From Thermosulfurimonas dismutans (lineage in GTDB: Bacteria; Desulfobacterota; Thermodesulfobacteria; Thermodesulfobacteriales; Thermodesulfobacteriaceae), in NCBI RefSeq assembly GCF_001652585.1, contig NZ_LWLG01000013.1, positions 30,001 through 62,000 of the forward strand: a stretch of 32,000 bases of DNA, written 5' to 3'. A program made the translations under genes and the position numbers. Within the stretch, counting starts at the first letter, position 1; every line of letters starts with the position of its first letter. This document shows, one piece after another, positions 6,555-32,000 of the stretch. A model generated the notes under the pieces. It made no database searches, was not told where the DNA came from, and was given only the letters and a program-made list of their open reading frames with translations.

Positions 6555-7946
6555 AGGATACCAGAACACCTTGAGTCGAAACCTTCCCCCTTCCTTCCCA
6601 ATAGCAAACAAGCCATGAAACAATGAAAATTCAAATTCCGAAGGTGATCGGCGCAGAGATAACAAAAATGCTATTTCTTGTACGCTTTTAGAAGGTCCAG
6701 CCTCATAACGATAAAGCCCCCATAAAAGTTTGAAGTACCGTTTTCCATCGGGAAACCGGTAATATTCAAGCAACTTTAGAAAAGGACCCCAATTTCTTTC
6801 AACACCTTCATCATAGAAAGGCAATATGGCCGGAAAGTAAAAAAGACTTTCTCCCTCGGAGCTCCTATATCGTACAAACAAAGGCCAGAAACGAATAAAA
6901 CTTTCTTTCTCCTCTCCCTCCCGATAAACCTTACGATATCTCGATAGGAGGAGAATCCTGGCGGAGGTTTCCTCTTCCTTCCCCCTCACAAGATGTTCTC
7001 CCTGGAAAATAGGCCAAAGAACAAAGTTACTCTCTTTATCCGAAGTCTTGCGGTATCCGAAAAGGGGAAAGATTCGGAATCCTTCTTTATCTTCGCCTTT
7101 CTGAATCTGAAAAATGGGCCAGGGAAGATCCCACTGTTTAAATCGCTGGTCAGTGGTCTCCAAATGCTGAAAGAAAGGCCAGAAATAGATAGTTTTGCGA
7201 TAACGAGGTCCTTCCTCTCTTACCCACAAAGGGAAAAACATCCTCTTGCGGGCCGGAGGACCATCATCGTAATACCTTTCTTCCGAGATAAAAAATGGCC
7301 AGAGGAAAAAAGAACGCCGAAATTGGCCCTTCCTTTCGCGATAACCCCATATAGGCCAGACTTTGAACCCCGAGAGTTCTGGACCACGGCTGTAGTTAAA
7401 GATGGGCCAGAGAATATTGGTGGATCGATTGGAACCCTCTCTGGCCTGGGAGTAGATCGGCCATAGTACGAATCTGATCTCGTCGTATCCGAAACGTTCC
7501 TTCATGCGGCCGTAAATAGGAAAGAGCCCCCAGTACTTCTCCCCGCTCTCAGTCCTTCCCCAGAAAACCGGAAAATAGGTGTGGTGGGCCCCCGAAGTTT
7601 TCTCTCCCTCTACCCAGTCGTAAGAAAATAGAGGGACCAAACGAAACCTTCGGAAATCTTTCTCTTTATGATAATGCCCGAGAGGAGAGAGAAAATAGAG
7701 ATCCTCGGTTTTTTCCTCTTTGTTGGTGACCTCCGTAAAGATGGGTCTTAAAGAGAAAGAATCCTCTTTGGTGTTACGATAACGATAAATAAAAGGCCCC
7801 AAGAGCTCAAGACGGGACCTTTCCTTTTCTTTGGCATAGAAAAGAAGGGGCCAGAGATTGATACGAAAACTATCTCCCCAACCGAGGCCCGGAAGCAGAA
7901 GACAGAGCAAAAGGCCCACAAAAACCGATCTCTTCATCTTGTCCAA
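6546..7946 (-). CDS. secreted repeat protein of unknown function (WP-repeat, outer-membrane-like), last gene of the mla operon
   Basis: Signal peptide MDKMKRSVFVGLLLCLLLPGLGWG. About 17 copies of a [LFV]-[WF]-P-[ILF]-[FYW] motif every ~20-28 aa (LWPLLFY, FPVFWG, LFPIYG, LWPIYS, LWPIFN, VWPIWG, LWPFF, FWPFFQ, PWPIFQ, IFPLFG, LWPIFQ, FWPLFV...). C-terminal ...VFWYPLF ends in Phe, as in OMP signatures. Confidence 0.7.
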   Translation of the reverse strand: MDKMKRSVFVGLLLCLLLPGLGWGDSFRINLWPLLFYAKEKERSRLELLGPFIYRYRNTKEDSFSLRPIFTEVTNKEEKTEDLYFLSPLGHYHKEKDFRRFRLVPLFSYDWVEGEKTSGAHHTYFPVFWGRTESGEKYWGLFPIYGRMKERFGYDEIRFVLWPIYSQAREGSNRSTNILWPIFNYSRGPELSGFKVWPIWGYRERKGQFRRSFFLWPFFISEERYYDDGPPARKRMFFPLWVREEGPRYRKTIYFWPFFQHLETTDQRFKQWDLPWPIFQIQKGEDKEGFRIFPLFGYRKTSDKESNFVLWPIFQGEHLVRGKEEETSARILLLSRYRKVYREGEEKESFIRFWPLFVRYRSSEGESLFYFPAILPFYDEGVERNWGPFLKLLEYYRFPDGKRYFKLLWGLYRYEAGPSKSVQEIAFLLSLRRSPSEFEFSLFHGLFAIGKEGGRFRLKVFWYPLF

Positions 7947-7952
7947 CTACCC

Positions 7953-9029
7953 TTATTGCATAGCTGCCCCGGCAATAGTGCCTAGGATAGAAATAGGTAC
8001 CTGTTCCTGAATCCCGGTGCTGGCTCTGTTCACGTTTTGAAGGGTCTTCTTGGCCTCGATGTAGAGAGAATCATCGTTGATGAGTTTACCCAAGGTACCT
8101 TCACCTCGTTCAACCTTCTTTACGATCCGATTCAGGGAGGCCGCCGTGTCCTTGAGCTCTTCATAAAGTTCGTCATCCGTCAAAAGCTTGCCAAGAGTAC
8201 CTTCCCCTTTGTTTATTCTATCCGCTACTTCTGCAATGGCCGTGGACCCCCTCTCCACGCTCTTCATGGCTTCCTTAAAGCTGAGGTAAAGCTCTTCATC
8301 CGTAAGGAGTTTGCCTAAAGTACCTTCTCCTCGCCGCATCTTTTCGGAGACCTCTTTTAAATTGGCCATAGTGACTTTAAAGTCTGCAAAGCTGCGTCTA
8401 ATATCTGTGTAAAGGGTCTCATCTACTAGGAGTTTACCCAAAGTGCCCTCACCCCGGACTACCTTTTCGCCCACCTCTTTAAAGGCCGCACTGGCATCCC
8501 TAAGATTAACGATCAATTCCTTGAGGTTATTACGTCCCTCCTCGCTTCCCAGAATCTCACTCAACCCCTCGGCCACCTTCTTCAAATCTTTGATAGCCGG
8601 GCCAACCTCCGCAATTACCTGACTGAGATCCATAGGACTTTGTGTGTGGGCTAGGGTAGCTCCAGCCACAAGAAATTCCGAAGATTTTCCCTGTCTAACC
8701 TCTACAAAACGATCTCCAAGAACCCCAGCCGTCCGGATAAGGGCCTCGGCGTCCCGGGTTAGCTTGAAGTCCTTGTAGATCAGGAGTTCGACCTTGGCCC
8801 GGCCTTCGGGAAGAAGCGAAATGGCCCCCACCTTTCCAATCTCTACCCCAGCCATCTCCACCCGGGCTCCCCGCACGAGTCCCGAAACGTTATCGAATAC
8901 CGCATAGACCGGATAAGTTCCTCGGGGAACCAAGGATTCTTCCGCAAGTTTGACTGTGAGATAAGCTAAAGCCAAAAGGGCCACCAAAACAAAAACGCCA
9001 ACTTTAATCTCCGTGCTTTTCTTGTACAT
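7953..9029 (-). CDS. mlaD: MlaD/MCE-domain protein with C-terminal repeat extension
   Basis: N-terminal TM anchor (KVGVFVLVALLALAYL), then an MCE domain (YPVYAVFDNVSGLVRGARVEMAGVEIGKV). Four C-terminal GEGTLGKL(L/I)xD(D/E)xLY repeats. Start taken at MYKKSTEIK (9029). Confidence 0.85.
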   Translation of the reverse strand: MYKKSTEIKVGVFVLVALLALAYLTVKLAEESLVPRGTYPVYAVFDNVSGLVRGARVEMAGVEIGKVGAISLLPEGRAKVELLIYKDFKLTRDAEALIRTAGVLGDRFVEVRQGKSSEFLVAGATLAHTQSPMDLSQVIAEVGPAIKDLKKVAEGLSEILGSEEGRNNLKELIVNLRDASAAFKEVGEKVVRGEGTLGKLLVDETLYTDIRRSFADFKVTMANLKEVSEKMRRGEGTLGKLLTDEELYLSFKEAMKSVERGSTAIAEVADRINKGEGTLGKLLTDDELYEELKDTAASLNRIVKKVERGEGTLGKLINDDSLYIEAKKTLQNVNRASTGIQEQVPISILGTIAGAAMQ

Positions 9030-9780
9030 CTCTACCCTCCTCGGGATAGCATCCCTCAAAAGCACTTTTCAAGAATTCCCTCACAAAGGGATGCTCGCTC
9101 TTTTTGATCTCTTCCGGAGTTCCCTCGGCTACCACCCTTCCTTCATTTAGGAACGCGATATAATCCGCCGCCATGAGAGCTATAGGGACATCGTGGGTAA
9201 CAACTACTCCGGTAAGACCATACTGCTGTTGAGTCTTCCGGATAAGTTTCATGGTGGCGACCTGAAGCATGGGATCAAGACCGGTAGTAGGCTCATCAAA
9301 AAGAATAATTTCGGGCTCAAGAGCCAAGGCCCGGGCAAGAGCCGCTCGTTTCTTCATACCTCCAGAAAGCTCAGCCGGATATTTGTTCCGGGCCTCAAGC
9401 AAACCCACTTGAGAAAGTTTCTCCTCCACCTTTCTTTGGATTTCTTTTTTGGAAAGCTTGGTATGTTCTATCAAAGGAAAAGCTACGTTTTCCGCCACCG
9501 TCATAGAATCAAAGAGAGCCCCCTCCTGGAAGAGGAATCCGAACTTACGCCTAAGTCTCTGCCACTCCTTTTCTGAAAGGTGGGTCACATCCTGACCGTC
9601 AATCAGGATTTGCCCTCGGTCCGGTTTGAGAAGACCTATGATATGTTTGAGGAGCACGCTCTTTCCGGTTCCGCTGCGGCCCATTATAAAAGTGAGCTTT
9701 CCCCGAGGGATCTCTAGATTGATCCCGTTTAGGACCGTCTGTTCCCCAAAACTCTTGTATAAATCGACCAATTTCACCAT
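9004..9780 (-). CDS. mlaF: ABC transporter ATP-binding protein (MlaF-like)
   Basis: Walker A GRSGTGKS, signature LSGGMKKR, Walker B ILFDEPTTGLD. Position between mlaE and mlaD. Confidence 0.9.
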   Translation of the reverse strand: MVKLVDLYKSFGEQTVLNGINLEIPRGKLTFIMGRSGTGKSVLLKHIIGLLKPDRGQILIDGQDVTHLSEKEWQRLRRKFGFLFQEGALFDSMTVAENVAFPLIEHTKLSKKEIQRKVEEKLSQVGLLEARNKYPAELSGGMKKRAALARALALEPEIILFDEPTTGLDPMLQVATMKLIRKTQQQYGLTGVVVTHDVPIALMAADYIAFLNEGRVVAEGTPEEIKKSEHPFVREFLKSAFEGCYPEEGRDVQEKHGD

Positions 9781-9782
9781 GA

Positions 9783-10580
9783 CTAAAAAAGAAGCGAGGT
9801 CAGGATATAGTCTCCCACCAGGATACTTACCGAAGCAATGACCACGGCCTCGGTGGTGGCCCGTCCTACCCCTTCTGCTCCCCCGGAGGCGTTATAACCT
9901 TTATAGCAACCAATTATAGACAACAAACCTCCGAACACGAAGGCCTTGTATATACCGCTCGAAAGATCCAGCCATTCCACCATTTCCTGCATCTTTCGAA
10001 TAAAGATTCCGGCATCCACATTCAAGAGCATGACCCCAACCAGGTAGCCACCGGCGATCCCCACCAGATCAGCAATGATAGTAAGAAGAGGCACCATAAT
10101 CACGGCCGCCCAGAAACGGGGCACCACCAAATAGTGAACCGGGTTTACAGCCATCACCTCCAAGGCATCGATCTGTTCGGTAACCCGCATAGAGCCCAGC
10201 TCGGCCGCCATGGCAGAGCCAGCACGGGCCGTAACCATAAGACTAGTAAGCACCGGCCCCAGCTCCCGCACAAGACTCAAAGCTACCAAACCTCCGAGAA
10301 GGCTTTCCCCTCCGAATTTGGAGAGGGCATGATACCCCTGAAAGGCCATTACCATTCCGGAAAAAAGGGCTGTAAGAACCACCACCAAAAGGGAATTGAC
10401 ACCAACAAACTCCATCTGTTTAAAAAAGAGCCTCAACCTAAAGGGAGGCCTAAAGGTATAAACCAGAGTAGTCAGAAAAAGAAGGGCCATCCCCCCGGCT
10501 TGAGAGATAAAATCTAACCCCACCCGCCCTAAATAAGACAAAAAGTTGAGCATTACGATCCACCTTCTCCTGGCTAGCAT
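9783..10580 (-). CDS. mlaE: ABC transporter permease (MlaE-like)
   Basis: Polytopic membrane protein with the typical MlaE stretch LGPVLTSLMVTARAGSAMAAELGSMRVTEQIDALEVMAVNP. The true start may be the internal MLNFLSY. Confidence 0.9.
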   Translation of the reverse strand: MLARRRWIVMLNFLSYLGRVGLDFISQAGGMALLFLTTLVYTFRPPFRLRLFFKQMEFVGVNSLLVVVLTALFSGMVMAFQGYHALSKFGGESLLGGLVALSLVRELGPVLTSLMVTARAGSAMAAELGSMRVTEQIDALEVMAVNPVHYLVVPRFWAAVIMVPLLTIIADLVGIAGGYLVGVMLLNVDAGIFIRKMQEMVEWLDLSSGIYKAFVFGGLLSIIGCYKGYNASGGAEGVGRATTEAVVIASVSILVGDYILTSLLF

Positions 10581-19766: not shown

Positions 19767-19997
19767 TTATAGAAGGTTATCAAGCTCATCAAGGCTTATT
19801 CCAGCGGCTTTAAGAATACATTTGAGGGTTTTGGGAGCTAGAATTTTTCCGCTATGAACCGGTATGGTAACCAAGACTTCTTTCTCGTCATGATAGAGAT
19901 GGTAGTGGCTTCCTTTGATTCGGACTATTCGGAAATCTGCTCGCTGTAAAGCTTTTACTAGGTCTTTCCCGGTGATCCTAGGCAGCTTTCTGCTCAA
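19767..19997 (-). CDS. hicA: type II toxin HicA (mRNA interferase)
   Basis: LPRITGKDLVKALQRADFRIVRIKGSHYHLYH...TIPVHSGKILAPKTLKCILKAAGIS is the YcfA/HicA signature. Confidence 0.85.
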   Translation of the reverse strand: MSRKLPRITGKDLVKALQRADFRIVRIKGSHYHLYHDEKEVLVTIPVHSGKILAPKTLKCILKAAGISLDELDNLL

Positions 19998-20196
19998 ATT
20001 CGACCTCTATTTCGGCCTGAAAAGACTTTCTGAGTTCTGTCAGGGCTTCAAGGTGTCCTTCGATGGCTTCTTTGGCATTTCCTATGGCTTCTTCGATAGT
20101 GTCTCCCTGAGTGACGCATCCCGGAAGATCCGGGACCGTGACCGTGAAGCCGCCTTCTTCATTGGGCTCGATCACAATTTTATAACGAAGTGTCAT
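19978..20196 (-). CDS. hicB: type II antitoxin HicB
   Basis: MTLRYKIVIEPNEEGGFTVTVPDLPGCVTQGDTIEEAIGNAKEAIEGHLEAL (HicB RNase-H-like fold signature). AGGAG lies 9 nt upstream of ATG 20196. Overlaps hicA by 20 nt. Confidence 0.85.
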   Translation of the reverse strand: MTLRYKIVIEPNEEGGFTVTVPDLPGCVTQGDTIEEAIGNAKEAIEGHLEALTELRKSFQAEIEVEFEQKAA

Positions 20197-20271
20197 CTTC
20201 TCTTCTCCTGTTTTTGGGATTCGTTTTATCATTTTAGATAAAATTCAGACGGATTTGAAGTTTGAATTTGC

Positions 20272-21116: not shown

Positions 21117-22948
21117 TTAGCCGCTCGAAAGCCTCTGAGTAAGCCTTTTCCACCAGCGAAAGCCTTTCTTCTCATCCTCCAGATCCAGAAAGTTCTTAAA
21201 TCTTTGGGCGTCCAAGAGGACTACCCCTTTGGTTTCCACCACCACGCCCGAGGGAAGATAGTTTACCAGCGAATCCTTATCCGGCCGGGAATGTTCCAAG
21301 AAGGCCCGGGTGATATCAAAGTACTCCCGACCGTCAATTTTTATAGTCTTTGCAAACAGTTCCTGGTGGGCGTGGTAAAAGGTAAACCAGGCCCGGCGGG
21401 CTCGCTCCCGATAGTAAAGATCTACAAGCCTTTCCTCCGTAAACCACCTCGGCCGATCCAGATCCAATTCCTCAAAATACTCCAGAAAGATTTCCCTGGC
21501 AGGTTTTAAGAAGTCTTCGGGGAAAAAGATTTCTTTCTGCCGGAATCTTCGTTCGAGTCTGAAAACGAAATCTCGGAAGAGGTCCTCTTCAAGACGGTAT
21601 TCCCGTTTTACTCTCTGAGGAAACGGGACGGAAAGTGGAAGATAGTAGATTCGGCGCATGACCTCCGGAGGGGCGTGGAAGTCCTTCTCGTTTCCGGTGG
21701 CCAGGAAACAGGCATGGGGGCCGGAGAAGGTGTTGGCCATCTCTTTGATGAACTGCACGCCTTCGTATGATCTTTCCGAAGTGGTGGTGAAGTACTGCCG
21801 TTTAACCTCGTCCACCAGGACGGGAAAGAGATTTCCGTTGGTAAGAAGAAGATAAATACCGCGCGAGTTGATTTTTCCGGCCGGGAATTTGGCCTTGGGA
21901 GTATAATGGTAATGAAGGCCGTGGTTTCCCAGAAGACGACTTATGGCACGCAGAAGAAAGGTCTTTCCGGAGCCGGCCGCCCCTGCGATATAAAGGAAGA
22001 TGGGTACTTCCGCTAGATACTCTTCCCCCAGAAGGGAAGCCTCTTTGCGAATGAGCCACAGAAAGGGCGACATGAAGGCGTAAAGGACGGCCTCGAAGGC
22101 AATGCGGCTAGCCCGCTCTTCGCCGGTAAGCTCGGAGTAGGAGCTCAAAAACTCATTAAGTCCCTGAAAAACCGTCTGGAGCCTCTCCAGAGGAAGCTCC
22201 CTTCCCAGAGGCTCGCCATTTCTGAAAAGTCCTTCCTCACGCCATTGGAATCTAGGCCTATCGTCCTCGAATTCCCTGGTCTCCTGGACGGTTCGCTTGA
22301 GCACCCGGAAAAGGGCCTCTTTTTTCGCATAAACCTCTCTGGGGGAGATAAGGATGGCCCCGGATTCCGTGCGCTTGGTTATGACCCGAAAAACCTCAAG
22401 GAGCTTTCTTTGTTCGCGGACGTTTTCCTCTTTTTCTTTGATCTTCTTTTCCATCTCTTCCAGAGAGTCTTTTAAGTGAGCTTCCACAAGGAGGGTTTTC
22501 ACCTCCCCGATACGGTCGGCAAAAAACTCCAGGGTTTCCTTGTCTTTGACCAATAAGGCTTCAGGGAGTTTCTTTTTCTTTTGGAGAAAATCTTTAGGGA
22601 ATAGGGGACGAGAAGATTTCTTTAAATGTCTTAGTACCTTTTCAAAGAGGGCAAATTTGGACGGATTCTCTTCTTCATCAAAGACTTCGAGGATCTCCCA
22701 TTGGCGTCCGCCAAGGGCTCTCTCGGTGAGGTTGGCGCTTCCCCAGATAAGCCTGCGCCCAGTCTCACCTTTTAAGAGAAAGATTTTGGCATGACTGGCT
22801 TCAAAGGGTACCAATACTTGGTAATCTCCTTTGGAGAGTTTTTCGAGAATTTGGGCGTTGGCCGAAACTTCTTCAAAGAGTCGGCGATTTTCCTCCGGTT
22901 CAAAAAAGGCCGCAAGTCCTCGCGCCGATTCCGGGAAACCTACTATGA
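21117..22948 (-). pseudogene. 3' part (607 codons) of an IS-interrupted PLD(HKD)-nuclease / P-loop NTPase gene
   Basis: HKD motif SHAKIFLLKGETGRRLIWGSANLTERAL (~22728-22793). Walker A IAGAAGSGKTFLL (~21960-21983). Walker B-like LFPVLVDEV (~21804-21827). Joins in frame to 24206-24433 once the IS and one target-duplication copy are removed. Confidence 0.8.
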
Positions 22949-24205
22949 GGGACTGTCCACCCGTTTGTGTAAATTTCATTATAGCCGGTCCTCGAAGAGA
23001 ATTGCTATCTGGCCGTATATCTGAGGCCAGCCCTTGATCTGGGCCCATTTCCGCTCAAGCTCCATAGCTGCCATGTACAAGCACTTTAACAGGGATTCTT
23101 CCGTCGGAAATACCCGTCTTCCGGCCGTAGCCTTACGAAATTTACTATTTACGCTCTCTATAATATTTGTCGTGTACATTACTCGCCTAATCTCCACAGG
23201 ATACCTGAAAAAGGCTGTAAGAGCCTCCCAGTTCGCCTGCCAGCTCTTCACTACGTGAGGGTATTTACTCCCCCATTTCTCCGAAAAAGCCTCCAGCTCC
23301 CTCTCCGCCGCCTCAAGCGTGGCCGCCCCATAGATCCTCTTGAGATCCCGAGCTATTTCACGTCTCTCTTTCCAAGCCACATACCTCAAGGAATTCCTGA
23401 TCTGATGCACTATGCATCTCTGGATATCCGCCCTCGGGTAAACCGCCCCTATGGCCTTCTCAAGCCCAGAAAGCCCATCCACGCTGAAAATGAAAACATC
23501 CTTCACCCCTCGAGACTTTAGGTCGTTCAATACACCAAGCCAAAATCGGCTCGATTCTGTCCCGTTTATCCAAAAACCTAAAATCTCCTTATAACCCTCA
23601 AGATCGAGTCCTATCGCCACATATACCGCCTTGTTCCTTACCTGCCCCTCCTCCCTGGCTTTATAGAAAATACAGTCTATCCAAATCAAAAAATACTTCT
23701 CCTTGAGCGGCCTCGAACGCCATTCCTCTATCTCCGGAAGTAGCCGATCCGTAATCTTGGAAATCAAAGAAGGACTTACGTCAAAACCATACATCTCCGA
23801 AAGGATCTCCTGGATATCCCTGGTACTCATACCTTTGGCGTAAAGGGCTACAATCTGGTTTTCGATCTCATCCAGCATAGTCTGGCGCTTCCTGACTATT
23901 TGAGGCTCAAATTCGCCCTTCCGATCCCTGGGAACCTTGATCTCCAGGGCCCCGGAAGAGGTCTTAATCGTCTTGGAACTGTAGCCGTTCCGGGAATTGT
24001 CGGTATCCGAGCGCTCGTATCTCCCGTAGCCCAAAAACTCCTCTAGTTCGGCCTCAAGGGCTTCCCTCAAAGTACGCCGGACAAGTTCCTTAATGGTGGC
24101 CTGCACTTCTTCGGGCTGAGGTGCCTTCTTGGCTCTTGCCATAGTGTCCACCCTCCTTTTGTAATTTGCTTATTCTAAAATCTCCACAGTTGGGTGGACA
24201 CTCCC
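22949..24205 (-). mobile_element. intact IS256-family insertion sequence (1257 bp)
   Basis: Imperfect terminal IRs GGGACTGTCCACCCGTTTGTGTAAATTT (22949 onward) and GGGAGTGTCCACCCAACTGTGGAGATTTT (complement from 24205). Flanked by a perfect 8-bp direct repeat TACTATGA (22941-22948 and 24206-24213). Confidence 0.88.
22979..24151 (-). CDS. IS256-family (mutator-type) transposase, 390 aa, intact
   Basis: NSRNGYSSKTIKTSSGALEIKVPRDRKGEFEPQIV..., DCIFYKAREEG..., SVDGLSGLEKAIGAVYPRADIQRCIVHQIRN, YTTNIIESVNSKFRK. These are the DDE and signature blocks of IS256 transposases. Confidence 0.95.
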   Translation of the reverse strand: MDTMARAKKAPQPEEVQATIKELVRRTLREALEAELEEFLGYGRYERSDTDNSRNGYSSKTIKTSSGALEIKVPRDRKGEFEPQIVRKRQTMLDEIENQIVALYAKGMSTRDIQEILSEMYGFDVSPSLISKITDRLLPEIEEWRSRPLKEKYFLIWIDCIFYKAREEGQVRNKAVYVAIGLDLEGYKEILGFWINGTESSRFWLGVLNDLKSRGVKDVFIFSVDGLSGLEKAIGAVYPRADIQRCIVHQIRNSLRYVAWKERREIARDLKRIYGAATLEAAERELEAFSEKWGSKYPHVVKSWQANWEALTAFFRYPVEIRRVMYTTNIIESVNSKFRKATAGRRVFPTEESLLKCLYMAAMELERKWAQIKGWPQIYGQIAILFEDRL

Positions 24206-24433
24206 TACTATGAAACACAATTTTTCGAAACCAAGATTCAGGAAGAACTCCAAGGCCTTTCTTATGGAGGCCGAATAGGTGAGCACCAGGGCCTCCTGAT
24301 AGCCTGCCACTAAACTCTGAGGGTCTCCAGAGAACTCCCGCCCTTTATATAAGATCTTGAGACGGCTCTCCGAAGTGTTTTCAAAAAGCCCCGCCATCCT
24401 TTTCATCTTGAGGTCTTTTTGTTGTTTTGACAA
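24206..24433 (-). pseudogene. 5' part (up to 76 codons) of the IS-interrupted PLD-nuclease / NTPase gene
   Basis: ...MAGLFENTSESRLKILYKGREFSGDPQSLVAGYQEALVLTYSASIRKALEFFLNLGFEKLCFIV, then it runs into the IS (GSVHPTVEILE* is IR-encoded). The start is ambiguous (TTG 24433, ATG 24406 or ATG 24397). Confidence 0.7.
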
Positions 24434-24455
24434 GGCGTCGCTTGGAGTTATATTC
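24427..24455 (+). promoter_or_regulatory. candidate sigma-70 promoter for the plus-strand operon
   Basis: TTGACA (24427-24432), a 16-nt spacer, then TATATT (24449-24454), ~24 nt upstream of ATG 24478, in the divergent intergenic region. The track's TTG start at 24427 is this -35 box. Confidence 0.35.
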
Positions 24456-24477: not shown

Positions 24478-25230
24478 ATGGCACTTGACGAAAAGATTCT
24501 CTATCGCATTTTTTCCGAGCTTTTTCCGGATGAGACGGTTGAAAATTGGGCCTTTCTCGGAGACGGCTTTACGCCTTTTGCGGACTGGAGGCGAGCCGCC
24601 GGCCCCAAAAGAGAGCTTTGCTTTCTTATCAAAACCTGCGATCCTCGAAAGTTTATCGTAAAAGCCGAGGATATTCTCGGTTCCCATTGCCGCATAGCCA
24701 AGCTCGATGAGGCCATGGGGGTCTATTCTTTCTGGGTAGGCTGGTGCGAGACGCCGATCTTTGCGGTCTCCTTTTTCGTGCCGTTTTCGGACCCGTGGCG
24801 GAAAAAGCTCTTTGAGAGGATTTTTTACGGAGATAAGGAAAAATTTCACTATTGCAAACTATTCAATCATGGGGTGCGTCTCCTTCCGGACGAAGACTTT
24901 GGGGTTCTTTCCGTGGCCCTCGGAAGACAGGTAAGACGCCCACTTGATGGATTTTACGCTCTGGTGCTGGCCTCAAATGACCGAGCCACGGCCGAGAGAA
25001 TCGAGGAGCTTGCGGGGATTCTTAAAATTTTAGAAAAGTTGAAAATCTTGGAAAAGAAGGCTTCTTTATTCAATTTAGCCAAAAACAGAATGGAAAGTTA
25101 CAAGGATCGTGGTATCAATCGGTTTTTTTATTTTTGGGACTATGAGGAGCGCTGGTTACGGAGCGCGAAAGCCGAAGAAGTAAGAATGTTAAAGCGTATG
25201 AAAAGCTCCCTGCTTTTCAAAGACGACTAG
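24478..25230 (+). CDS. hypothetical protein (250 aa), first gene of the operon; no motif recognised
   Basis: MALDEKILYRIFSELFPDETVENWAFLGDGF... with a helical, charged C-terminal third (ERIEELAGILKILEKLKILEKKASLF...). Same strand as the downstream MPE gene and 5 nt from it. Confidence 0.65.
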   Translation: MALDEKILYRIFSELFPDETVENWAFLGDGFTPFADWRRAAGPKRELCFLIKTCDPRKFIVKAEDILGSHCRIAKLDEAMGVYSFWVGWCETPIFAVSFFVPFSDPWRKKLFERIFYGDKEKFHYCKLFNHGVRLLPDEDFGVLSVALGRQVRRPLDGFYALVLASNDRATAERIEELAGILKILEKLKILEKKASLFNLAKNRMESYKDRGINRFFYFWDYEERWLRSAKAEEVRMLKRMKSSLLFKDD

Positions 25231-25235
25231 GAGTT

Positions 25236-25958
25236 ATGCTAGCCTTTGCCGCGGACATTCACGGCGAGTGGCGCAGGCTTTACGAGAACCTCCCTCAGGA
25301 GGTGGAAGCGGTTTTCATCTGCGGGGACGCTGAAATGGTTCGCTCTGAGGAGGATTTGGCGCTTATACCGGCTCCCAAGAAGCATCTAAAGCTCGGAGAT
25401 TTTCATTTCTTTTGGGAGCGGGGCGAGGTTCCCGTTCCGACCTATGTCCTTCTTGGAAACCACGAGCCGTACCTGTGGCTCTGGGAGCACGAAAAAAACG
25501 GACCGACGGAGGTCATTAAGAACCTATGGGTGCTGGCACGGTCGGGAGTTATTGAGCTTTGCGGGCTAAAGATTGCTTATCTTGGCAGGGTTTTTGCCCC
25601 TACTACCTATTTTGAAGGGCGAGTATGGAATCCAGAGAAAGACAAGAGGTCCAAAAAGTCGAAGCTTGCGAGCCGTTTTACACCGGAAGATGTAGAAAGA
25701 CTCATTTCAGAGGCGGCTAAAGTGGAAGATGTCGATGTACTCGCTCTCCACGAAAATCCGAATTATTGCAAGGACGCACGAGGAAGAGAAGTCTATCGGA
25801 ATATTGTTGAGCTTGTGAGACCGAAACTCATCATTTGCGGACATATGCATCGTCTTTTACTGGAAACTTTTTCTGGTGTTCCTATTTTTGGGCTTCCATA
25901 TGGGATTCCAGTCACTTGGCAAAAAATCGAGTGTTCGATGGAAAACACAAATCTTTGA
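25236..25958 (+). CDS. calcineurin-like metallophosphoesterase, Dbr1-like motif architecture (240 aa)
   Basis: All five MPE motifs: ADIHGEW, ICGDAEMVRSEEDLALIPAPKKH, LGNHEPY, LALHENP, CGHMH. Confidence 0.85.
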   Translation: MLAFAADIHGEWRRLYENLPQEVEAVFICGDAEMVRSEEDLALIPAPKKHLKLGDFHFFWERGEVPVPTYVLLGNHEPYLWLWEHEKNGPTEVIKNLWVLARSGVIELCGLKIAYLGRVFAPTTYFEGRVWNPEKDKRSKKSKLASRFTPEDVERLISEAAKVEDVDVLALHENPNYCKDARGREVYRNIVELVRPKLIICGHMHRLLLETFSGVPIFGLPYGIPVTWQKIECSMENTNL

Positions 25959-26010
25959 GCGCTAATTCGACCTCGATGTTTCGTCCAAGCCGATAAGTTT
26001 TCAATAGGCT

Positions 26011-26880
26011 ATGCATTTCGCAGTCATCGGTGATGTTCACGGGCGATTTGAGTTGCTGGCAAGGGTGCTTGCGGTCCTGCGCGACCGCTACGGGGTAGAA
26101 CTCGCCTTTCAGGTGGGCGACTTGGCCTTTCTATCCTCAAGCGACCCCAAGTACCTCAAGGCCCTGAAGATGGCCGGGCCGCAAACTCCGCCCCTCATTT
26201 ACGACGTTTTTGATGATGAAGTCCAAGCCATAAGGTTCCTCCACGGCGACATCGAGCTTCCCGTCCCGGTCTACTTCGTAGGCGGAAATCACGAGGACTG
26301 GCCGTACTTAGACTTCGTGGAAGAGAAGATGCGCGAGCAGGGGATAGCACCGCCCTACGAGATTGCGCCGAACCTCTTTTTCCTGGGAAAGGCGAGCGTG
26401 GTGGAGGTGTCCGAAATGCGGGTCGTCACCCTTTCAGGGATCTACGACCGCCTCAAGTGGGAGCTCTGCGTGACCTCACCGCGGAAGCTCTACTACCACA
26501 ACCAAGAAGACGAAGAGGCGCTTCTCTTCCATGCGCCCGGGGCGGACCTTTTCATCGCGCACGAGTGGCCGGTGAAGCTCGCTTCGGGCGCAACCTGGGA
26601 GGAGGCCATTTACGCAGCCGTCGGCTCTCCCACGGTGGACCGGCTCATCCACCACTTTCGGCCCGCGCTTTCGTTCCACGGGCACATGCACCGCTACGCG
26701 CAGGGCATTCGCGGCCCCATGGGAGAGCGGCCCACGAAGTGGGTGGGCCTGGACATGCTCATCGTGGACCACTACCACAGAGTCCGCAATGTGGCCCTTT
26801 GCGAGTTCGAGGGGCCGGGTGCGGTGAGGCTCCTTTTTACCGCGGAGGCGAGGAAACTCTTAAAGGACGCTTCCGCTTAG
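26011..26880 (+). CDS. calcineurin-like metallophosphoesterase, Dbr1-like motif architecture (289 aa), GC-rich
   Basis: IGDVHGRF, VGDLAF, GGNHEDWPYL, FIAHEWP, VGSPTVDRLIHHFRPALSFHGHMH. Clearly higher GC than the preceding paralogue; long spurious ORFs in the other frames are a symptom of this. Confidence 0.85.
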   Translation: MHFAVIGDVHGRFELLARVLAVLRDRYGVELAFQVGDLAFLSSSDPKYLKALKMAGPQTPPLIYDVFDDEVQAIRFLHGDIELPVPVYFVGGNHEDWPYLDFVEEKMREQGIAPPYEIAPNLFFLGKASVVEVSEMRVVTLSGIYDRLKWELCVTSPRKLYYHNQEDEEALLFHAPGADLFIAHEWPVKLASGATWEEAIYAAVGSPTVDRLIHHFRPALSFHGHMHRYAQGIRGPMGERPTKWVGLDMLIVDHYHRVRNVALCEFEGPGAVRLLFTAEARKLLKDASA

Positions 26881-26889
26881 GAGAGCACG

Positions 26890-27297
26890 ATGTCAACCCG
26901 AGACCTTTTGCGGTTTGCAAGAGAAGTGGAAAAGAGCCGTCCCCGACTGAGGCGGGTCCTCAAGGTGGAGGAGCTTTATACCGAGTACCTCACGCGTCTT
27001 CCCCGCCTTCCGGTGGTGCGGGCCGGTTTCGAGGTCCTCAACGAATTTAATCTCCGCATCGTTTCCCCGAAAGCGCTTATTGCGGTGCTCCTCTGTCTTC
27101 CCGAGCGCTCAATGGACCTCTCTGCTTTCGTGCGGGTGCTTCCCGAAGTCTTTCCAGAGGATCTTTCCAGAGCCCTGCAAGTCCTTTCGGGGGACCCCGG
27201 GGTGCTTGCAGTGGTTCTCTACGGTTCAAGGGCTCGAGGAGATGCTCGGCCGGATTCGGACTGGGGTGGTATTCAATTTTGTGTGTCTGGAGAGTAA
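26890..27297 (+). pseudogene. Pol-beta-superfamily (MNT-like) nucleotidyltransferase with a ~110-aa N-terminal extension, truncated inside the catalytic motif by an IS
   Basis: ...VLAVVLYGSRARGDARPDSD|WGGIQFCVSGE*. The G-S motif and first Asp are present. The expected DxD continuation is replaced at 27263 by the IS inverted repeat. AGGAG lies 7 nt upstream of the ATG. Confidence 0.65.
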
Positions 27298-27300
27298 ATA

Positions 27301-27328
27301 AGGAAGGCCCCTGGTGAAGGGCCTTCCT
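27301..27328 (+). promoter_or_regulatory. 10-bp stem-loop in the IS leader
   Basis: AGGAAGGCCC-ctggtgaa-GGGCCTTCCT, 38 nt inside the left IS end and upstream of the transposase SD. The position fits a hairpin that blocks read-through transcription into an IS. Confidence 0.3.
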
Positions 27329-27373
27329 AAAAGAAAAGGGGAAAAGAAGAAACTCATCAAGGAGGTAACCGCT

Positions 27374-28587
27374 ATGAAACAGAATAATCCCTTCACCGAA
27401 GAATTTCTAGAACAACTTAAGGACTGGGAAAACTTTGTCCCCAGAGAGTTCCTCTCCTGGCTCTTTAAAAACCTGGGCCTGGCACACCGCGCCATCCACC
27501 TCAAGAAACATCCCCATGACAAGGGAAACGGCTTCTACGAAAGAACACTACAGATAGGATACAGATAGGAAGTCTTCCTTTTCCCGTAGAGGTGGCCCGT
27601 ACACGGTATGAAAAGTTCCGGCCCTTTTTCCTCCCTCCAGGACACCTCCGGTATCTCCCCGAAGATTACCTCCACCTGACCTCCTCCCTTCTCCTGGGCT
27701 CCCGATCCATCGATAGCGCTTCCCGGGCCCTAAAAAATATGGGCCTCCCCATAAATCAAGATTACCTGGAAGAAGTGATCGAAGAGTTCGTGACCTATCT
27801 CGAGGACCTCAACTCCTGCCCGCTGCCTTCAGATTTGGCCGCCCTCATCCTGGATGCCAAACATATCCACCAGAAGCTCAAAGACGGACAGAAGGTCATG
27901 GGACATACCACCTATGTGGCCCTGGGCCTTACCCTGGATGGGCAGAAGAAGATCCTAGGCCTCTACACCTTCGAGGGCTCAGAGAGCCTCGAGGGCTGGA
28001 AGAAGACCCTGGAGAAGCTTCTTCAGCGGGGGCTGAGGGGGATCCTTATCGTGATCCATGATGACTTCCCTGGACTCCTGGGCCTCACCTCAAGCCTTTT
28101 TCCTCAGGCGGATATTCAACTTTGTACGGTGCACCTTTGCCGGAATGCAAGAAAACACCTCTCCCAGGAGAACTATCGCACCTTTAAGAGCTACTTCAAA
28201 AGCATCAAAGCAAGCCTCAGCTATGAGGAAGGCTTGAGGCTTTTTGATTCTCTTCTCAAGGAGCTTCCACAGGAGAACACCTTTGTGAAGCTTCTTGCAA
28301 AGAAGAAAGAGCACTATCTGGCCTTTTTGAAGTATCCGGAGGAGGTGAGACCGCTGTTTTCCTCGACCAATCTGGCCGAGGGGATCAACCGGAAGATAGA
28401 AGAGGCGGAGAGGGCCTGTGGGGGTTATTTCCATTCGGAACGGGACCGGGACTTCAGGTATGGGGTGCTAGCTAAGGAATTGCTAGAGGGCAGATGGAGG
28501 AGGGTCAACTGGAAATACCAGCGGGTGGCTCACCTCCTGAGATATCTTTTCGAGGAAAGGTTTAAAAATGAGGACCTCTTGGTCTAG
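27374..28587 (+). pseudogene. IS256-family transposase, frameshifted by an 11-bp tandem duplication
   Basis: ATG 27374 with AAGGAGGT upstream. ...GNGFYERTLQIG is followed by TACAGATAGGA duplicated (27549-27559 and 27560-27570). Removing one copy restores ...LQIGSLPFPVEVARTRYEKF... into the 331-aa ORF (DAKHIH..., HDDFPGL, QLCTVHLCRN, SSTNLAEGINRK). Confidence 0.85.
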
Positions 28588-28612
28588 ACACAGAAAACTT
28601 GACAAGCGCCCC

Positions 28613-28795
28613 ATTTGGCCTCAAGGGAGAGAGCGCAAGCCTCTATCCATTGTTTCCGGGAAAACTTGGCTAACCCCTCTATCAGCTTGTCCAGCGCCCC
28701 TTCCTGGAGCTTTTCCAGACGCCCCAGGTTAGCCACGATCCTCTGGCGAACTTTTTCGCCTCACTAGCCCTTCCCTGCTGTCAAACTTGGGTTAG
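28613..28795 (-). pseudogene. IS1634-like element 5' end fragment, copy 1 (internally deleted, cut by the IS256-family element)
   Basis: Minus strand encodes ...VRQRIVANLGRLEKLQEGALDKLIEGLAKFSRKQWIEACALSLEAKW, then hits the IS IR. Shares a ~71-bp block (3 mismatches) and the terminal ...CAAGTTTGACAG... with copy 2. Confidence 0.6.
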
Positions 28796-28840: not shown

Positions 28841-29044
28841 ATGAAGATCTACGAAACGGTAGTCACGCCGGATCGAAAAATAGTCGTGGAAAATATTTCT
28901 TTGATGCCGGGAGAAAAGGTCAAGTTGCTGATACTCAGGGAAAAGTCTGGCCGGAAGGGATATCCGCTCAGGGGAAGAAGAGTAGAATATATTGATCCTT
29001 TCGAAAGCGTGGCGGAAGATGAATGGGAAGCCCTAAAATGGTAG
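28841..29044 (+). CDS. putative type II antitoxin (VapB-position)
   Basis: 67 aa ending ...YIDPFESVAEDEWEALKW. Its stop overlaps the PIN gene start (ATGGTAG). Confidence 0.55.
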   Translation: MKIYETVVTPDRKIVVENISLMPGEKVKLLILREKSGRKGYPLRGRRVEYIDPFESVAEDEWEALKW

Positions 29045-29502
29045 TTCTTGACACCCATGTCTGGGTCTGGTGGGTTCATTCTCCAGAAAAATTAACCTCC
29101 AAACAAATTAGTGTCATTCAGGCTAATGAAAACGATTTAATAGGAATCTCGGCCATTTCCTGCTGGGAGATAGCGAAGTTGGTGGAACGGGGACGGTTGC
29201 GGCTTCCCTGCACCCTGGAGGAATGGTTCGATCTGGCTTTTTCCTATCCGGGGATAGAGATAATCCCTCTGACCCCTGAAATCGCCATAGAATCGACCAG
29301 GCTACCTGGAAACTTTCACAGAGATCCGGCGGATCAGCTGATTGTGGCCACAGCTCGGGTCCTGAATTGTCCGCTTGTCCAGCGCCCCTTCCTTAAGCTT
29401 TTCCAGACGCCCCAGGTTAGCCACGATCCTCTGGCGCACTTTTCCACTAACCCGCTTGCCCTCCACGATATAGAGATAGGTTTTTGGAGGTGGAGACGGT
29501 AG
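29038..29502 (+). pseudogene. vapC: PIN-domain toxin (VapC-like), 3' end replaced by IS1634-like sequence
   Basis: MVVLDTHVWVWW (Asp1), ISCWEIAKL (Glu), RDPADQLIVATARVLNCPLV (Asp3). From ~29373 the frame reads through antisense IS sequence (QRPFLKLFQTPQ...), so the last conserved acidic residue is missing. Confidence 0.75.
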
Positions 29503-29608
29503 AACAGAGGCAGGGAAGGGGAAAAAAGGGGGCATTTTAGGGGTATTTTGGGCCGAAAATACTCACTTCAGATTCACCAGCCCTTTCCGACTGTCAAACT
29601 TGAGTTTG
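29373..29608 (-). pseudogene. IS1634-like element 5' end fragment, copy 2 (IR plus first ~45 codons of the transposase)
   Basis: Minus strand encodes MPPFFPFPASVLPSPPPKTYLYIVEGKRVSGKVRQRIVANLGRLEKLKEGALDK. The Y.Y.VE..R..GKVRQR..A.LGRL pattern is the IS1634-family transposase N-terminus as I recall it. Confidence 0.6.
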
Positions 29609-29885
29609 AGGTATGTTGCGAAGAGATTGAGCCAACGCGAGAGGAGAGCTTTTCGTCAGAGGGCTAGACAGCAGCGATTTTGAAGCTAAGATCAAGATGT
29701 TGATGTTTCAAAGCGGACTTTCCCTGTTGGGTGATTTGTTGTATTGCACGAAAGATAAGTATACCAGGGGGACACCTTTTCTTTTAGAATCTCTTAGATT
29801 GGTTGAAATAATGTTAGAAACACTGGTAATTAAGAAGAGTCAAAGTGAAAGAAGTTGAAAAAAATACAACAGAGGAGGTAAAATT

Positions 29886-30911
29886 ATGAAAAGAGCACTG
29901 ATAACTGGTATAAGAGGTCAAGATGGAGCTTACTTAGCAAAACTGCTATTAGAAAAAGGATATGAAGTTTACGGTGCAGACAGGAGGAGTGGCGATTCCA
30001 GTAATTGGCGTTTAAAAGAACTTGGTATAGAAAAATACGTGAAGGTAATTTATATGGATCTTCTAGAGCTAACGAACATACTCAGAGTAATTAAGGAAGT
30101 TCAACCTGACGAGGTATATAATCTTGCAGCACAAAGTTTTGTACAGGCTTCTTTTGAACAGCCTATACTAACGGCAGAGGTAGATGCTATTGGAGTTCTT
30201 AGATTGTTAGAAGCTCTAAGATTTTATAAATCAGATGCAAAATTTTATCAAGCATCAACGAGCGAGATGTTTGGAAAGGTTCAAGAAGTTCCTCAAAAAG
30301 AAACAACACCTTTCTACCCAAGGAGTCCTTATGCTGTAGCCAAGCTCTTTGGACACTGGATTACAGTTAACTACAGAGAATCTTATAACATGTTTGCATG
30401 CTCTGGTATTTTGTTTAATCACGAATCCCCTTTAAGAGGGTTAGAATTTGTAACAAGAAAAATTACTTACACTTTAGCACGGATTAAATATGGATTAGAA
30501 GATAAGCTTATTCTTGGAAATCTTGATGCTAAAAGAGATTGGGGTTATGCTCCCGAATATGTAGAAGTTATGTGGTTAATGCTTCAACAAGATACGCCGG
30601 ATGATTATGTGATAGCAACGGGTGAAACTCATACAGTCAGAGAGTTTGTAGAAAAGGCGGCAGAAATTGCGGGATTTCAAATAGAATGGGAAGGAGAAGG
30701 GATAAATACGAAAGGTATAGATAAGAAAACTGGAAAAATTATAATAGAGGTTTCTCCTAAGTTTTATAGACCTGCTGAAGTAGATATTTTAATAGGAGAT
30801 TATTCTAAGGCAAAAACTAAGCTTGGCTGGAAACCTAAAATTAAATTCGAAGAGCTTGTTAGAATCATGATGGAGGCTGACCTTAAACGAATTGAAAAAG
30901 CGAAACAATAG
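29886..30911 (+). CDS. gmd: GDP-mannose 4,6-dehydratase
   Basis: [79 protein letters not shown] upstream. Confidence 0.95.
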
Positions 30912-31017
30912 ATTAATCTCAACTTATGAGAGTAAATGAAAATTGCAGTAATAGCTAATTGTTAAGCTAAACTATTAGAGTGTTAAAACTTTTTGATTTT
31001 GAATCTAAATAACTTTT

Positions 31018-31026
31018 GGGGGGGGG
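31018..31026 (+). repeat. G9 homopolymer at the SD position of manC
   Basis: ttttGGGGGGGGGcgttctATG. The run ends 6 nt before ATG 31033 and sits in an otherwise AT-rich stretch. Confidence 0.9.
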
Positions 31027-31032
31027 CGTTCT

Positions 31033-32000
31033 ATGTGTCAAGTAAATTTTTTAATACTTGCGGGAGGTTCTGGAACAAGACTTTGGCCGCTATCCAGGAA
31101 AAATTTTCCAAAACAGTTTTTAAAACTACCCCTCCCAAATTCAACTCAACCGGAAAGCTTTTTCCAGAAAACCTTGAAGCGTATAGCTTTATATCCTGAT
31201 GACGCTAATTTTTACATTATTACCAATGAAAAGTATAAATTTTATATTCTAAATCAAATAAAAGAAATTTGGGATAATCCTGACAATTCTTTCGACACGG
31301 TGTTGGAGCCGGCATCCAGAAACACTGCTCCTGCTATTGCCCTTGGAGTAAGATATGCCCTTGAAAAAGGGGCCTCTTTAGAAGATGTGTTCGTTGTAAC
31401 TCCCTCAGACCATTTGATAGAGCCCAAAGAGAAGTTTGTAGAATATCTTGAACGCGCGGTAGAAATAGCAGAAAAAGGTCATATCGTTACCTTCGGTATA
31501 AAACCGACTAAACCCGAAACCGGATACGGTTATATAAAGGCAAATGAGCAATCTTTTCAGGATGGCTATTTTAAGGTTGAAAGATTCGTAGAGAAGCCGG
31601 ATCTGGAAACCGCCAGGAGGTATCTTGAAGAAGGAAATTATTTCTGGAATTCTGGAATGTTCGCCTTTTCTGGTAAAACCTTTATTGAAGAACTTAAAAC
31701 CTATTTACCCGAAGCATCTATAATATTTGAGAAACCCATGGAAGAGGTTTTTCAAAGATTCTCCGATCTTCCTGATATTTCTATAGATTATGCCGTGATG
31801 GAAAAGACGAACAAGGCGGTAGTGCTTCCTTTGTCTTTATATTGGTCCGATATAGGGTCCTGGGAAAGCTTGTTCGAAGTTTTCGAAAAAGACGAGAAGG
31901 GCAACTTGTTGCTTGGCAATGTGCTCGATCTTGATGTGAGGAATTCCTTTGTTTTTGGAGATAGAAGACTTATTGCCCTTTTAGGGGTGAAAGATCTGGT
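31033..32000 (+). CDS. manC: mannose-1-phosphate guanylyltransferase (runs off the right edge)
   Basis: Absent from the ORF track (no stop in the window). My own translation: MCQVNFLILAGGSGTRLWPLSRKNFPKQFLKL...EPASRNTAPAIALG...VTPSDHLI...TFGIKPTKPETGYGYI...FVEKPDLETARRYLEEGNYFWNSGMFAF...SIDYAVMEK...WSDIGSW. The track ORF 30993-31199 is an off-frame artefact. Confidence 0.9.
   Translation, partial: MCQVNFLILAGGSGTRLWPLSRKNFPKQFLKLPLPNSTQPESFFQKTLKRIALYPDDANFYIITNEKYKFYILNQIKEIWDNPDNSFDTVLEPASRNTAPAIALGVRYALEKGASLEDVFVVTPSDHLIEPKEKFVEYLERAVEIAEKGHIVTFGIKPTKPETGYGYIKANEQSFQDGYFKVERFVEKPDLETARRYLEEGNYFWNSGMFAFSGKTFIEELKTYLPEASIIFEKPMEEVFQRFSDLPDISIDYAVMEKTNKAVVLPLSLYWSDIGSWESLFEVFEKDEKGNLLLGNVLDLDVRNSFVFGDRRLIALLGVKDL

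Follow-up and report, generated by a model that had tools for sequence, protein, structure and literature searches.

In Thermosulfurimonas dismutans (Thermodesulfobacteriota), a vent bacterium, two neighbouring genes raise the question of whether bacteria possess relatives of the eukaryotic lariat-debranching enzyme Dbr1 and, if so, what such proteins would do there. The genes, MPE1 and MPE2, encode metallophosphoesterases (MPEs) and lie in a 32,000-nucleotide stretch of contig NZ_LWLG01000013.1, referred to below as the window. An earlier reading of this sequence (the original prediction) proposed that both proteins resemble Dbr1 and that, with the nucleotidyltransferase (NTase) encoded immediately downstream, they might make and break a 2'-5'-linked nucleic acid or nucleotide. 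As set out below, MPE1 and MPE2 share ancestry with Dbr1, and the pairing with the NTase is largely refuted for this genome.

MPE1 and MPE2 are intact members of the metallophosphoesterase superfamily

Both open reading frames (ORFs) were confirmed (Table 1; accessions OAQ20301/WP_068671198 for MPE1 and OAQ20302/WP_068671200 for MPE2), and the Pfam model Metallophos (PF00149) covered each product over its full length (E 6e-14 for MPE1 and 8e-13 for MPE2). The five superfamily motifs reported originally were also confirmed: the residues of D-x-H, G-D, G-N-H-[ED], H and G-H-x-H, which form the two-metal site, were invariant in the alignments with MPE1 and MPE2. All eight metal-binding and catalytic positions are kept in each protein, as D7/H9, D31, N75/H76, H172 and H203/H205 in MPE1 and as D8/H10, D37, N93/H94, H184 and H225/H227 in MPE2. 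A Pfam scan found no domain beyond the MPE domain in either protein, both of which end shortly after motif V, and no signal peptide was visible in either sequence. AlphaFold models were obtained with pLDDT values of 90.6 (MPE1) and 84.0 (MPE2), and all top Foldseek matches of the models were MPEs with the four-layer alpha/beta sandwich. Comparison of the window with close relatives gave dN/dS (omega) values of 0.15-0.17 for MPE1 and 0.09-0.14 for MPE2; both genes are under purifying selection. A good match to a Shine-Dalgarno sequence (AGGAG) lies 4 nt 5' of MPE1.

The two genes had been described as differing too strongly to be a recent duplication, and this held. Their products are 23-28% identical and fall in separate deep clades of a neighbour-joining tree. 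Base composition differs likewise, with a GC content of 49.0% in MPE1 vs 60.7% in MPE2 and a third-position GC content (GC3) of 50% vs 78%; the high GC content of MPE2 is consistent with an origin separate from that of MPE1.

Dbr1 is the closest relative of both proteins

Searched as single sequences against all PDB sequences with phmmer, both proteins matched Entamoeba Dbr1 (E 7e-12 for MPE1 and 3e-8 for MPE2) and otherwise only CWF19L1; no other MPE was matched by either at E<10. With Dbr1 and CWF19L1 as the only matches in this search, the resemblance to Dbr1 goes well past what chance would give. A bacteria-only profile, built from the 21 prokaryotic sequences of alignment A1 with no eukaryote among them, matched Entamoeba Dbr1 at E=1.5e-42 (149 bits), with profile positions 3-223 aligned to Dbr1 residues 10-252. 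The same profile matched CWF19L1 at 2e-14, the next family, MPPED2, at 6e-4 and Mre11 at 0.2. The structural comparison with other MPEs that had been proposed as a check also placed Dbr1 first for both models (E 4e-15 and TM-score (TMq) 0.75 for MPE1; 8e-14 and 0.67 for MPE2) and CWF19L1 second. Other MPEs (GpdQ, Rv0805, LpxH, Mre11 and aq_1956) were far weaker, with E-values of at least 5.5e-8 for MPE1 and at least 2.4e-7 for MPE2 and TMq of at most 0.56. The suspected affinity to Dbr1 was thus borne out by sequence, profile and fold: the best matches did not fall in other MPE clades, which the original prediction had named as a ground for refutation, and the stretches quoted in its favour do align with Dbr1.

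Eukaryotic Dbr1 (E. histolytica structures 4PEF/4PEH/5K77/5K78; yeast and human enzymes) is therefore the closest known relative, and no other MPE family is as close to the catalytic domains of MPE1 and MPE2. By sequence and structure alike, the next match was the N-terminal (pseudo-)MPE domain of CWF19L1/Drn1 (8ro1_L1, 8ro2_L1), which belongs to the same Dbr1-related branch. Drn1 orthologs have lost the catalytic residues of this domain, which is followed by CwfJ domains (PMC4105757), whereas in MPE1 and MPE2 the catalytic residues are all present and neither CwfJ nor any other domain follows. GpdQ, Rv0805/Icc, LpxH, Mre11/SbcD and MPPED2 have the same fold, the five motifs and, like MPE1 and MPE2, an Asp in motif I, but are much more distant (profile E of at least 6e-4; TMq of at most 0.56 vs 0.67-0.75 for Dbr1). 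In the profile and Foldseek comparisons, none of these bacterial MPEs, from GpdQ to MPPED2, aligned over the segment that follows motif II or over the loop at the site of the Dbr1 lariat recognition loop (LRL).

Dbr1 features kept in MPE1, MPE2 and their clade

Features described for Dbr1 in structural and mutational studies (PMC4176325, PMC5113202) were mapped onto the MPE alignment, with residues numbered as in the E. histolytica (Eh) enzyme. The metal ligands and general acid (His16, Asp45, Asn90, His91, His180, His230 and His232) are kept in both proteins. Besides the MPE core and the general-acid His, Dbr1 and the clade containing MPE1 and MPE2 have in common GD-x-x-x-x-R-x-E-x-D-L…P-x-K-Y behind motif II, the string GGNHE, (L)SGIY where the LRL begins, an equally long insertion there, and the motifs HDWP/HEWP and G(H/A)xH. 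The original prediction had taken such features to be common to the two proteins. Every string that it quoted is present, but the features are split between them: MPE1 carries the acidic stretch with its P.K segment, ICGDAEMVRSEEDLALIPAPKKH, together with LALHENP and LGNHE, and has no GSP; MPE2 carries GGNHEDWPY, SGIY, IAHEWP (HEWP), GSP…GHMH and VGSPTVDRLIHHFRPALSFHGHMH, and its segment after motif II is rearranged.

At the LRL site, which in Dbr1 lies beside the active site, the insertion measured over Eh 128-162 is 39 residues long in MPE1, 29 in MPE2 and 35 in Eh Dbr1. It begins with SGIY in MPE2 vs GRVF in MPE1, the form in the clade being SG(I/V)(Y/F), and the 39-residue loop of MPE1 is strongly basic (NPEKDKRSKKSKLASRF) and conserved within the MPE1 subfamily. 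In Dbr1, Tyr64 stacks on the branch-point adenine, which it sandwiches with His16, and His91 is the general acid (PMC4176325, PMC5113202). The position of Tyr64 is occupied by His50 in MPE1.

The extent of these features was assessed by an exhaustive hmmsearch over 1.84 billion cluster representatives, which returned 8862 proteins at E<=1e-3, of which 480, eukaryotic Dbr1 among them, reached E<=1e-30. The best 150 representatives were aligned, and four further Dbr1 sequences from eukaryotes were included. This alignment held 125 Asp-type sequences, named for the residue in motif I (median 273 aa), and 19 Cys-type sequences (median 424 aa). Among the Asp-type representatives, Pro61 is kept in 87%, Lys or Arg at position 63 in 84% and an aromatic residue at the position of Tyr64 in 78%; in the HDWP motif, Trp182 is kept in 90% and Pro183 in 98%. 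The insertion at the LRL site (Eh 130-158) has a median length of 31 residues in Asp-type proteins, equal to the 31 of Cys-type Dbr1. In the neighbour-joining tree, which is indicative only, the Cys-type eukaryotic sequences formed one clade among the prokaryotic ones.

That proteins of this kind resemble Dbr1 was already known, and automatic annotation attaches the Dbr1 name to them: both MPE1 and MPE2 are called 'RNA lariat debranching enzyme' in UniRef and metallophosphoesterase by NCBI. What is new is the delineation, from aligned sequences, of an Asp-type prokaryotic clade that lacks the Dbr1 C-terminal domain (CTD) and has the insertion at the LRL site and the P-x-K-Y motif. The clade is large, mainly prokaryotic and apparently uncharacterised; no published characterisation of any prokaryotic Dbr1 homolog was found in the literature searched, which is not proof of absence. 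Among GTDB genomes, it occurs in Myxococcota (Myxococcus, Corallococcus, Polyangium), Actinomycetota (Acidimicrobiia, Streptosporangiales, Microbacterium), Acidobacteriota, Abditibacterium, Thermodesulfobacteriota and a few archaea. A pattern scan of IMG/VR viral contigs for Dbr1-like MPEs found nothing, INPHARED gave one weak match (Rhodococcus phage Grayson gp166), and the best match in BFVD was a 251-aa siphovirus protein automatically named 'RNA lariat debranching enzyme' (TMq 0.62).

No neighbouring gene was conserved across about 60 loci with Dbr1-like MPEs. Distant homologs are solitary and their settings differ, some lying beside Uma2, SNF2, WYL and RlaP genes (loci L003 and L007) and others beside metabolic genes, as does an MPE1 homolog in L008. 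In L001, an MPE1 homolog directly follows a tmRNA gene and an integrase fragment, and thus belongs to an island integrated at ssrA. Of the four tandem MPEs in L007, one is Dbr1-like. Recurrent tandem pairs of Dbr1-like genes in L023 and L033, suggested by crude ORF clustering, were considered and rejected, the second 'MPE' ORFs being spurious.

Two further observations were made at these loci. The tmRNA-integrated island of L001 (6571-16729) also carries an AAA/ClpB-like ATPase, and the adjoining gene encodes a 1665-aa product with beta-type (Rpb2_6, Rpb2_7) and beta-prime-type (Rpb1_2, Rpb1_5) RNA polymerase domains, a compact fused RNA polymerase-like protein. A second, distinct MPE family, with the motif …DGNHE/EGNHD…GG..S.D…W.PEE…(S/T)H..P…GHWH, lies near Dbr1-like MPEs in two unrelated contigs, with one copy in L067 (7924-8883); L007 has three (7312-8004, 8738-9475 and 9475-10311), which form a tandem array with a single Dbr1-like gene. 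The L067 copy had no sequence match in the PDB, and the family is absent from the window, where tblastn matched nothing but MPE1 and MPE2, with identities of about 25%.

Predicted activity of MPE1 and MPE2

MPE1 and MPE2 are probably anciently diverged, cytoplasmic binuclear MPEs, predicted to be catalytically competent, which represent a mainly prokaryotic sister group of the Dbr1 catalytic domain and are carried as cargo of a mobile island, acting without the NTase. They would hydrolyse a phosphodiester of a nucleotide or nucleic acid by the canonical two-metal mechanism, with His76 of MPE1 or His94 of MPE2 as the general acid. A purine of the substrate would be held between two side chains, that of the His in motif I and the aromatic one of the P-x-K-[Y/H] motif, and the basic LRL-like loop would contact a strand. 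The island is a decaying mosaic of IS256 elements, HicAB, VapBC, a gene for a PLD/P-loop protein and the remnant of a minimal nucleotidyltransferase (MNT), in which MPE2 and the NTase remnant have had a history different from that of MPE1.

Several findings weigh against this reading, the first of which concern residues and domains on which Dbr1 depends. Cys14 in motif I (Cys11 in yeast) is invariant and essential in Dbr1 (PMC4176325, PMC5113202), and the yeast C11D mutant retained 7% of its activity on bis-p-nitrophenyl phosphate (bis-pNPP) and almost no debranching activity (PMC5113202). This residue is Asp7 in MPE1 and Asp8 in MPE2, and an Asp occupies the position in 21 of the 21 prokaryotic sequences of alignment A1. 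In place of Arg158, which is invariant in Dbr1 and organises the LRL from its centre (PMC4176325), MPE1 has a Thr and MPE2 an Asn; 19 of 125 (15%) Asp-type vs 19 of 19 Cys-type representatives have an Arg there. Deletion of the CTD abolishes Dbr1 activity (PMC4176325), and the Pfam scan found this domain (PF05011) in neither MPE1 nor MPE2, nor in any of 29 long Asp-type proteins; all four Cys-type controls scanned contained it. Cys14, the LRL and the CTD have been treated as unique to Dbr1 (PMC4176325, PMC5113202). Further differences from Dbr1 are that the region of Asp205 is absent in MPE1 and that the two proteins, at 240-289 aa vs 350-550 aa, are shorter and belong to a prokaryotic host without a spliceosome. 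In MPE2, LRL-site residues 146-162 were modelled at pLDDT<50, and the equivalent of Tyr64 is uncertain, the aligned residue being Pro in a rearranged region with DPKY and PPLIY nearby.

Other findings on the same side come from outside the proteins. Neither the window nor any of 20 homolog loci, among them those of Myxococcus, gave an Rfam match to a group II intron or a retron RNA, and a literature search returned no biochemical data for any member of the clade. In two close metagenomic relatives of the locus, L067 and L004, one or other of the genes is broken: MPE1 of L067 has a nonsense codon (TGG to TAG at codon 81; W81*), and MPE2 of L004 is frameshifted by a 1-nt deletion just before HEWP. 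Neither MPE1 nor MPE2 is therefore indispensable.

Because an Asp replaces the essential Cys, Arg158 is mostly missing and the CTD is absent, MPE1 and MPE2 are classed as enzymes of the Dbr1 clade and not as Dbr1 sensu stricto. The same three absences put a low weight on the 2'-5' bond. A 2'-5' linkage, in branched RNA, msDNA or a 2'-5' oligonucleotide, is a possible but doubtful substrate; otherwise, the substrate would be another nucleic-acid or nucleotide phosphodiester. It may also be suggested, tentatively, that the Asp-type, CTD-less proteins are genuine prokaryotic 2'-5' phosphodiesterases of the 'mini-Dbr1' kind and the stock from which eukaryotic Dbr1 came. If so, they would be the first debranching enzymes from bacteria and archaea, with group II intron lariats, retron msDNA or 2'-5'-linked oligonucleotides as their substrates, and eukaryotic Dbr1 would have arisen by an Asp-to-Cys switch together with the gain of Arg158 and the CTD. 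The composition of the clade itself sorts the features of Dbr1 into those that are likely ancestral (P-x-K-Y and an insertion of LRL length) and those added in eukaryotes (the Cys and the CTD). Two questions become testable, namely whether bacteria have a 2'-5' phosphodiesterase of the debranching type and how Dbr1 originated, for which the thermostable T. dismutans paralogs would be convenient test enzymes.

Housekeeping and defence roles

The motif-I Asp of MPE1 and MPE2 is typical of non-Dbr1 MPEs, both proteins are short and consist of one domain, their NCBI name is no more than 'metallophosphoesterase', and the L008 homolog of MPE1 lies among metabolic genes. These traits would suit generic housekeeping MPEs, that is, cyclic-nucleotide or small-molecule phosphodiesterases of the Icc/CpdA/YfcE type whose Dbr1-like motifs are superficial. 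Such a role is unlikely, however, given that Dbr1 stands apart from the other MPE families by >35 orders of magnitude in E-value and about 0.2 in TM-score, that the NCBIfam models YfcE and acc_ester matched far below their cut-offs, and that the Dbr1-specific P-x-K-Y motif and the insertion of LRL length are common to the clade.

It is likewise improbable that the MPEs serve as effector or regulator in anti-phage defence, in one system with the divergent PLD/P-loop gene and the gene upstream of MPE1. The island is rich in toxin-antitoxin genes and insertion sequence (IS) elements, the PLD/P-loop protein has weak PADLOC matches (ZacB, mad8), as to ZacB and other defence ATPases, and homologs of the MPEs occur in the ssrA-integrated island and beside the Uma2, SNF2, WYL and RlaP genes mentioned above. 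Weak matches to PADLOC candidate families, of MPE1 to PDC-S10 (1.8e-6) and of the NTase to PDC-S09, point the same way. The PDC-S10 match is low, however, at 25 bits for MPE1 vs 53 bits for the generic Pfam Metallophos model; that of MPE2 is 0.041 (11 bits), and both proteins match PDC-S10 more weakly than the generic model. The matches to PDC-S10 and PDC-S09 were judged too weak to assign membership. Furthermore, the PLD/P-loop and upstream genes occur only in near-identical relatives, and the former is disrupted by an IS here; most members of the clade (Myxococcus, Streptosporangiales, Acidimicrobiia) have ordinary chromosomal contexts with no common neighbour, and none was matched in the pattern scan of viral contigs.

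The neighbouring nucleotidyltransferase

The proposal of a make-and-break pair rested on the NTase gene downstream of MPE2. Only 9 nt separate the two ORFs, both of which are GC-rich, and the window, L004 and L067 all have the order upstream gene, MPE1, MPE2, NTase. In the window, the NTase ORF retains only positions 5-33 of the 93-position Pfam profile. The junction with the IS lies directly after GSRARGDARPDSDW, so that the fragment ends …PDSDW, after the DxD motif, and the remaining ~225 residues of the protein were not found anywhere in the window. The gene is frameshifted in L067 between PDS and DWDFLVL, and only a remnant is left in L004. Across the three loci the NTase has thus been inactivated in three ways, by IS insertion, frameshift and deletion, while the MPEs stay under purifying selection.

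The ancestral NTase, reconstructed from L067 (6348-7396), was a complete protein of about 349 aa, with an N-terminal region of about 90 aa, a complete minimal core and a C-terminal region of about 170 aa that has no detectable family. Its best matches were MNT antitoxins and minimal NTases (7ae2, 1wot; NF047752 MntA). The nearest full-length relatives are double-MNT proteins; the domains of P0188 and P0189 are complete, and P0189 adjoins a HEPN gene. With MntA of the HEPN-MNT (type VII) systems, its best family and PDB matches, the window NTase has in common the GS-x10-D-x-D minimal core. Unlike those systems, the ancestral protein had extra N- and C-terminal regions, no HEPN gene was found in the window, and the window copy is truncated by the IS. 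No OAS or CD-NTase signal was detected: the family models matched only Polbeta/NTP_transf_2 and MntA, with weak matches to HalB and PDC-S09. Nor was the NTase found beside any other Dbr1-like MPE in the ~60 loci.

A make-and-break pair is not supported, since the NTase is broken, has no link to OAS or CD-NTases and does not accompany other Dbr1-like MPEs. Despite the conserved gene order, the short spacing, the common GC-richness and the completeness of the ancestral NTase with its extra terminal regions, a pair acting on a 2'-5'-linked nucleic acid or nucleotide signal is thus very improbable, and for this genome it is largely refuted.

Mosaic history and decay of the locus

Divergence between the same genomes is uneven along the cassette. 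The synonymous divergence (dS) was 0.06-0.10 for MPE1 and 0.6-0.8 for MPE2, and the N-terminus of the NTase is only 53% identical; MPE2 of L004 and L067 are close to each other (dS 0.13). The cassette is therefore mosaic, which fits the difference in GC content between MPE1 and MPE2, and the pattern suggests that recombination in the lineage of T. dismutans replaced a GC-rich block of MPE2 and the NTase. That both MPEs are themselves decaying remnants without current function, as the nonsense codon in L067 MPE1, the frameshift in L004 MPE2 and the IS disruption of both flanking genes might imply, is most unlikely, because in the window both are full length with every catalytic residue present, dN/dS is 0.09-0.17 and MPE1 has a good ribosome-binding site. 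MPE1 and MPE2 are here orphan enzymes in a decaying mobile island, with no dedicated pathway in evidence.

Organisation of the island

A variable island of about 10 kb, at roughly 19.6-29.6 kb of the window, contains the MPE genes; it is bounded by a radical-SAM gene and a low-GC gene for a GDP-mannose dehydratase. The features of the island, which also holds IS scars, are listed in Table 1.

Table 1. Features of the island containing MPE1 and MPE2 (window coordinates).
Feature	Position	Strand	Remarks
HicA/HicB toxin-antitoxin pair	19767-20232	-	One flank of the cassette
PLD-like nuclease + P-loop ATPase gene, 3' part	21117..22947	-	Divergent from the MPE cassette
IS256/Mutator-family element, intact	22948..24206	-	390-aa transposase, 36-nt inverted repeats, 8-bp target duplication CTACTATG
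PLD/P-loop gene, 5' part	24207..24433	-	Other side of the IS
Sigma-70-like promoter match	24427..24454	+	TTGACA-16-TATATT, 11/12 consensus
Upstream gene	24478..25230	+	Ends 5 nt before MPE1; listed ORF starts at TTG 24427 (267 aa)
MPE1	25236..25958	+	240 aa; intact Dbr1-like metallophosphoesterase, Asp type
MPE2	26011..26880	+	289 aa; intact Dbr1-like metallophosphoesterase, Asp type, from a separate deep subclade
MNT-class NTase gene, 5' fragment	26890..27264	+	ORF runs to 27297 through IS-derived codons
IS256/Mutator-family element, degenerate	27262..28611	+	Boundaries approximate; truncates the NTase gene
VapB/PIN (VapBC) pair	28841-29502	+	Other flank of the cassette

The intact IS256-family element splits the PLD/P-loop gene cleanly. 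The product of this gene is about 700 aa long, and the gene is uninterrupted in L004. The degenerate element has imperfect terminal inverted repeats, GGGGTGGTATTCAATTTTGTGTGTCT and GGGGCGCTTGTCAAGTTTTCTGTGTCT, and a transposase broken into two ORFs (27314-27568 and 27592-28587). For the gene upstream of MPE1, the 5' end given in Table 1 is the ATG at 24478, which a 250-aa call in L004 fits. This product had no match in Pfam, NCBIfam, PADLOC, PHROG or PDB. Of the ~60 loci examined, none but L004 and L067, which are near-identical relatives, contained its gene, the PLD/P-loop gene or the NTase gene. The promoter-like site is placed to drive the upstream gene, MPE1 and MPE2; it is a consensus match only, and the number of such matches in the region was no higher than in shuffled sequences.

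Two copies of a 74-bp repeat (28682-28755 and 29370-29443), which are 94.6% identical, resemble the scar of a transposase gene. The repeat overlaps the 3' end of the PIN ORF, and the PIN gene may thus be altered. Elsewhere in the window, a 466-aa ORF without a Pfam match (6546-7946, - strand) adjoins an operon for a transporter of the MlaD/ABC ATPase/MlaE type (7953-10580, - strand). Finally, GC content falls to 34-41% at 29600-32000, around the GDP-mannose 4,6-dehydratase gene (29886-30911), vs about 50% in the window, which suggests that a horizontally acquired polysaccharide gene cluster borders the island.

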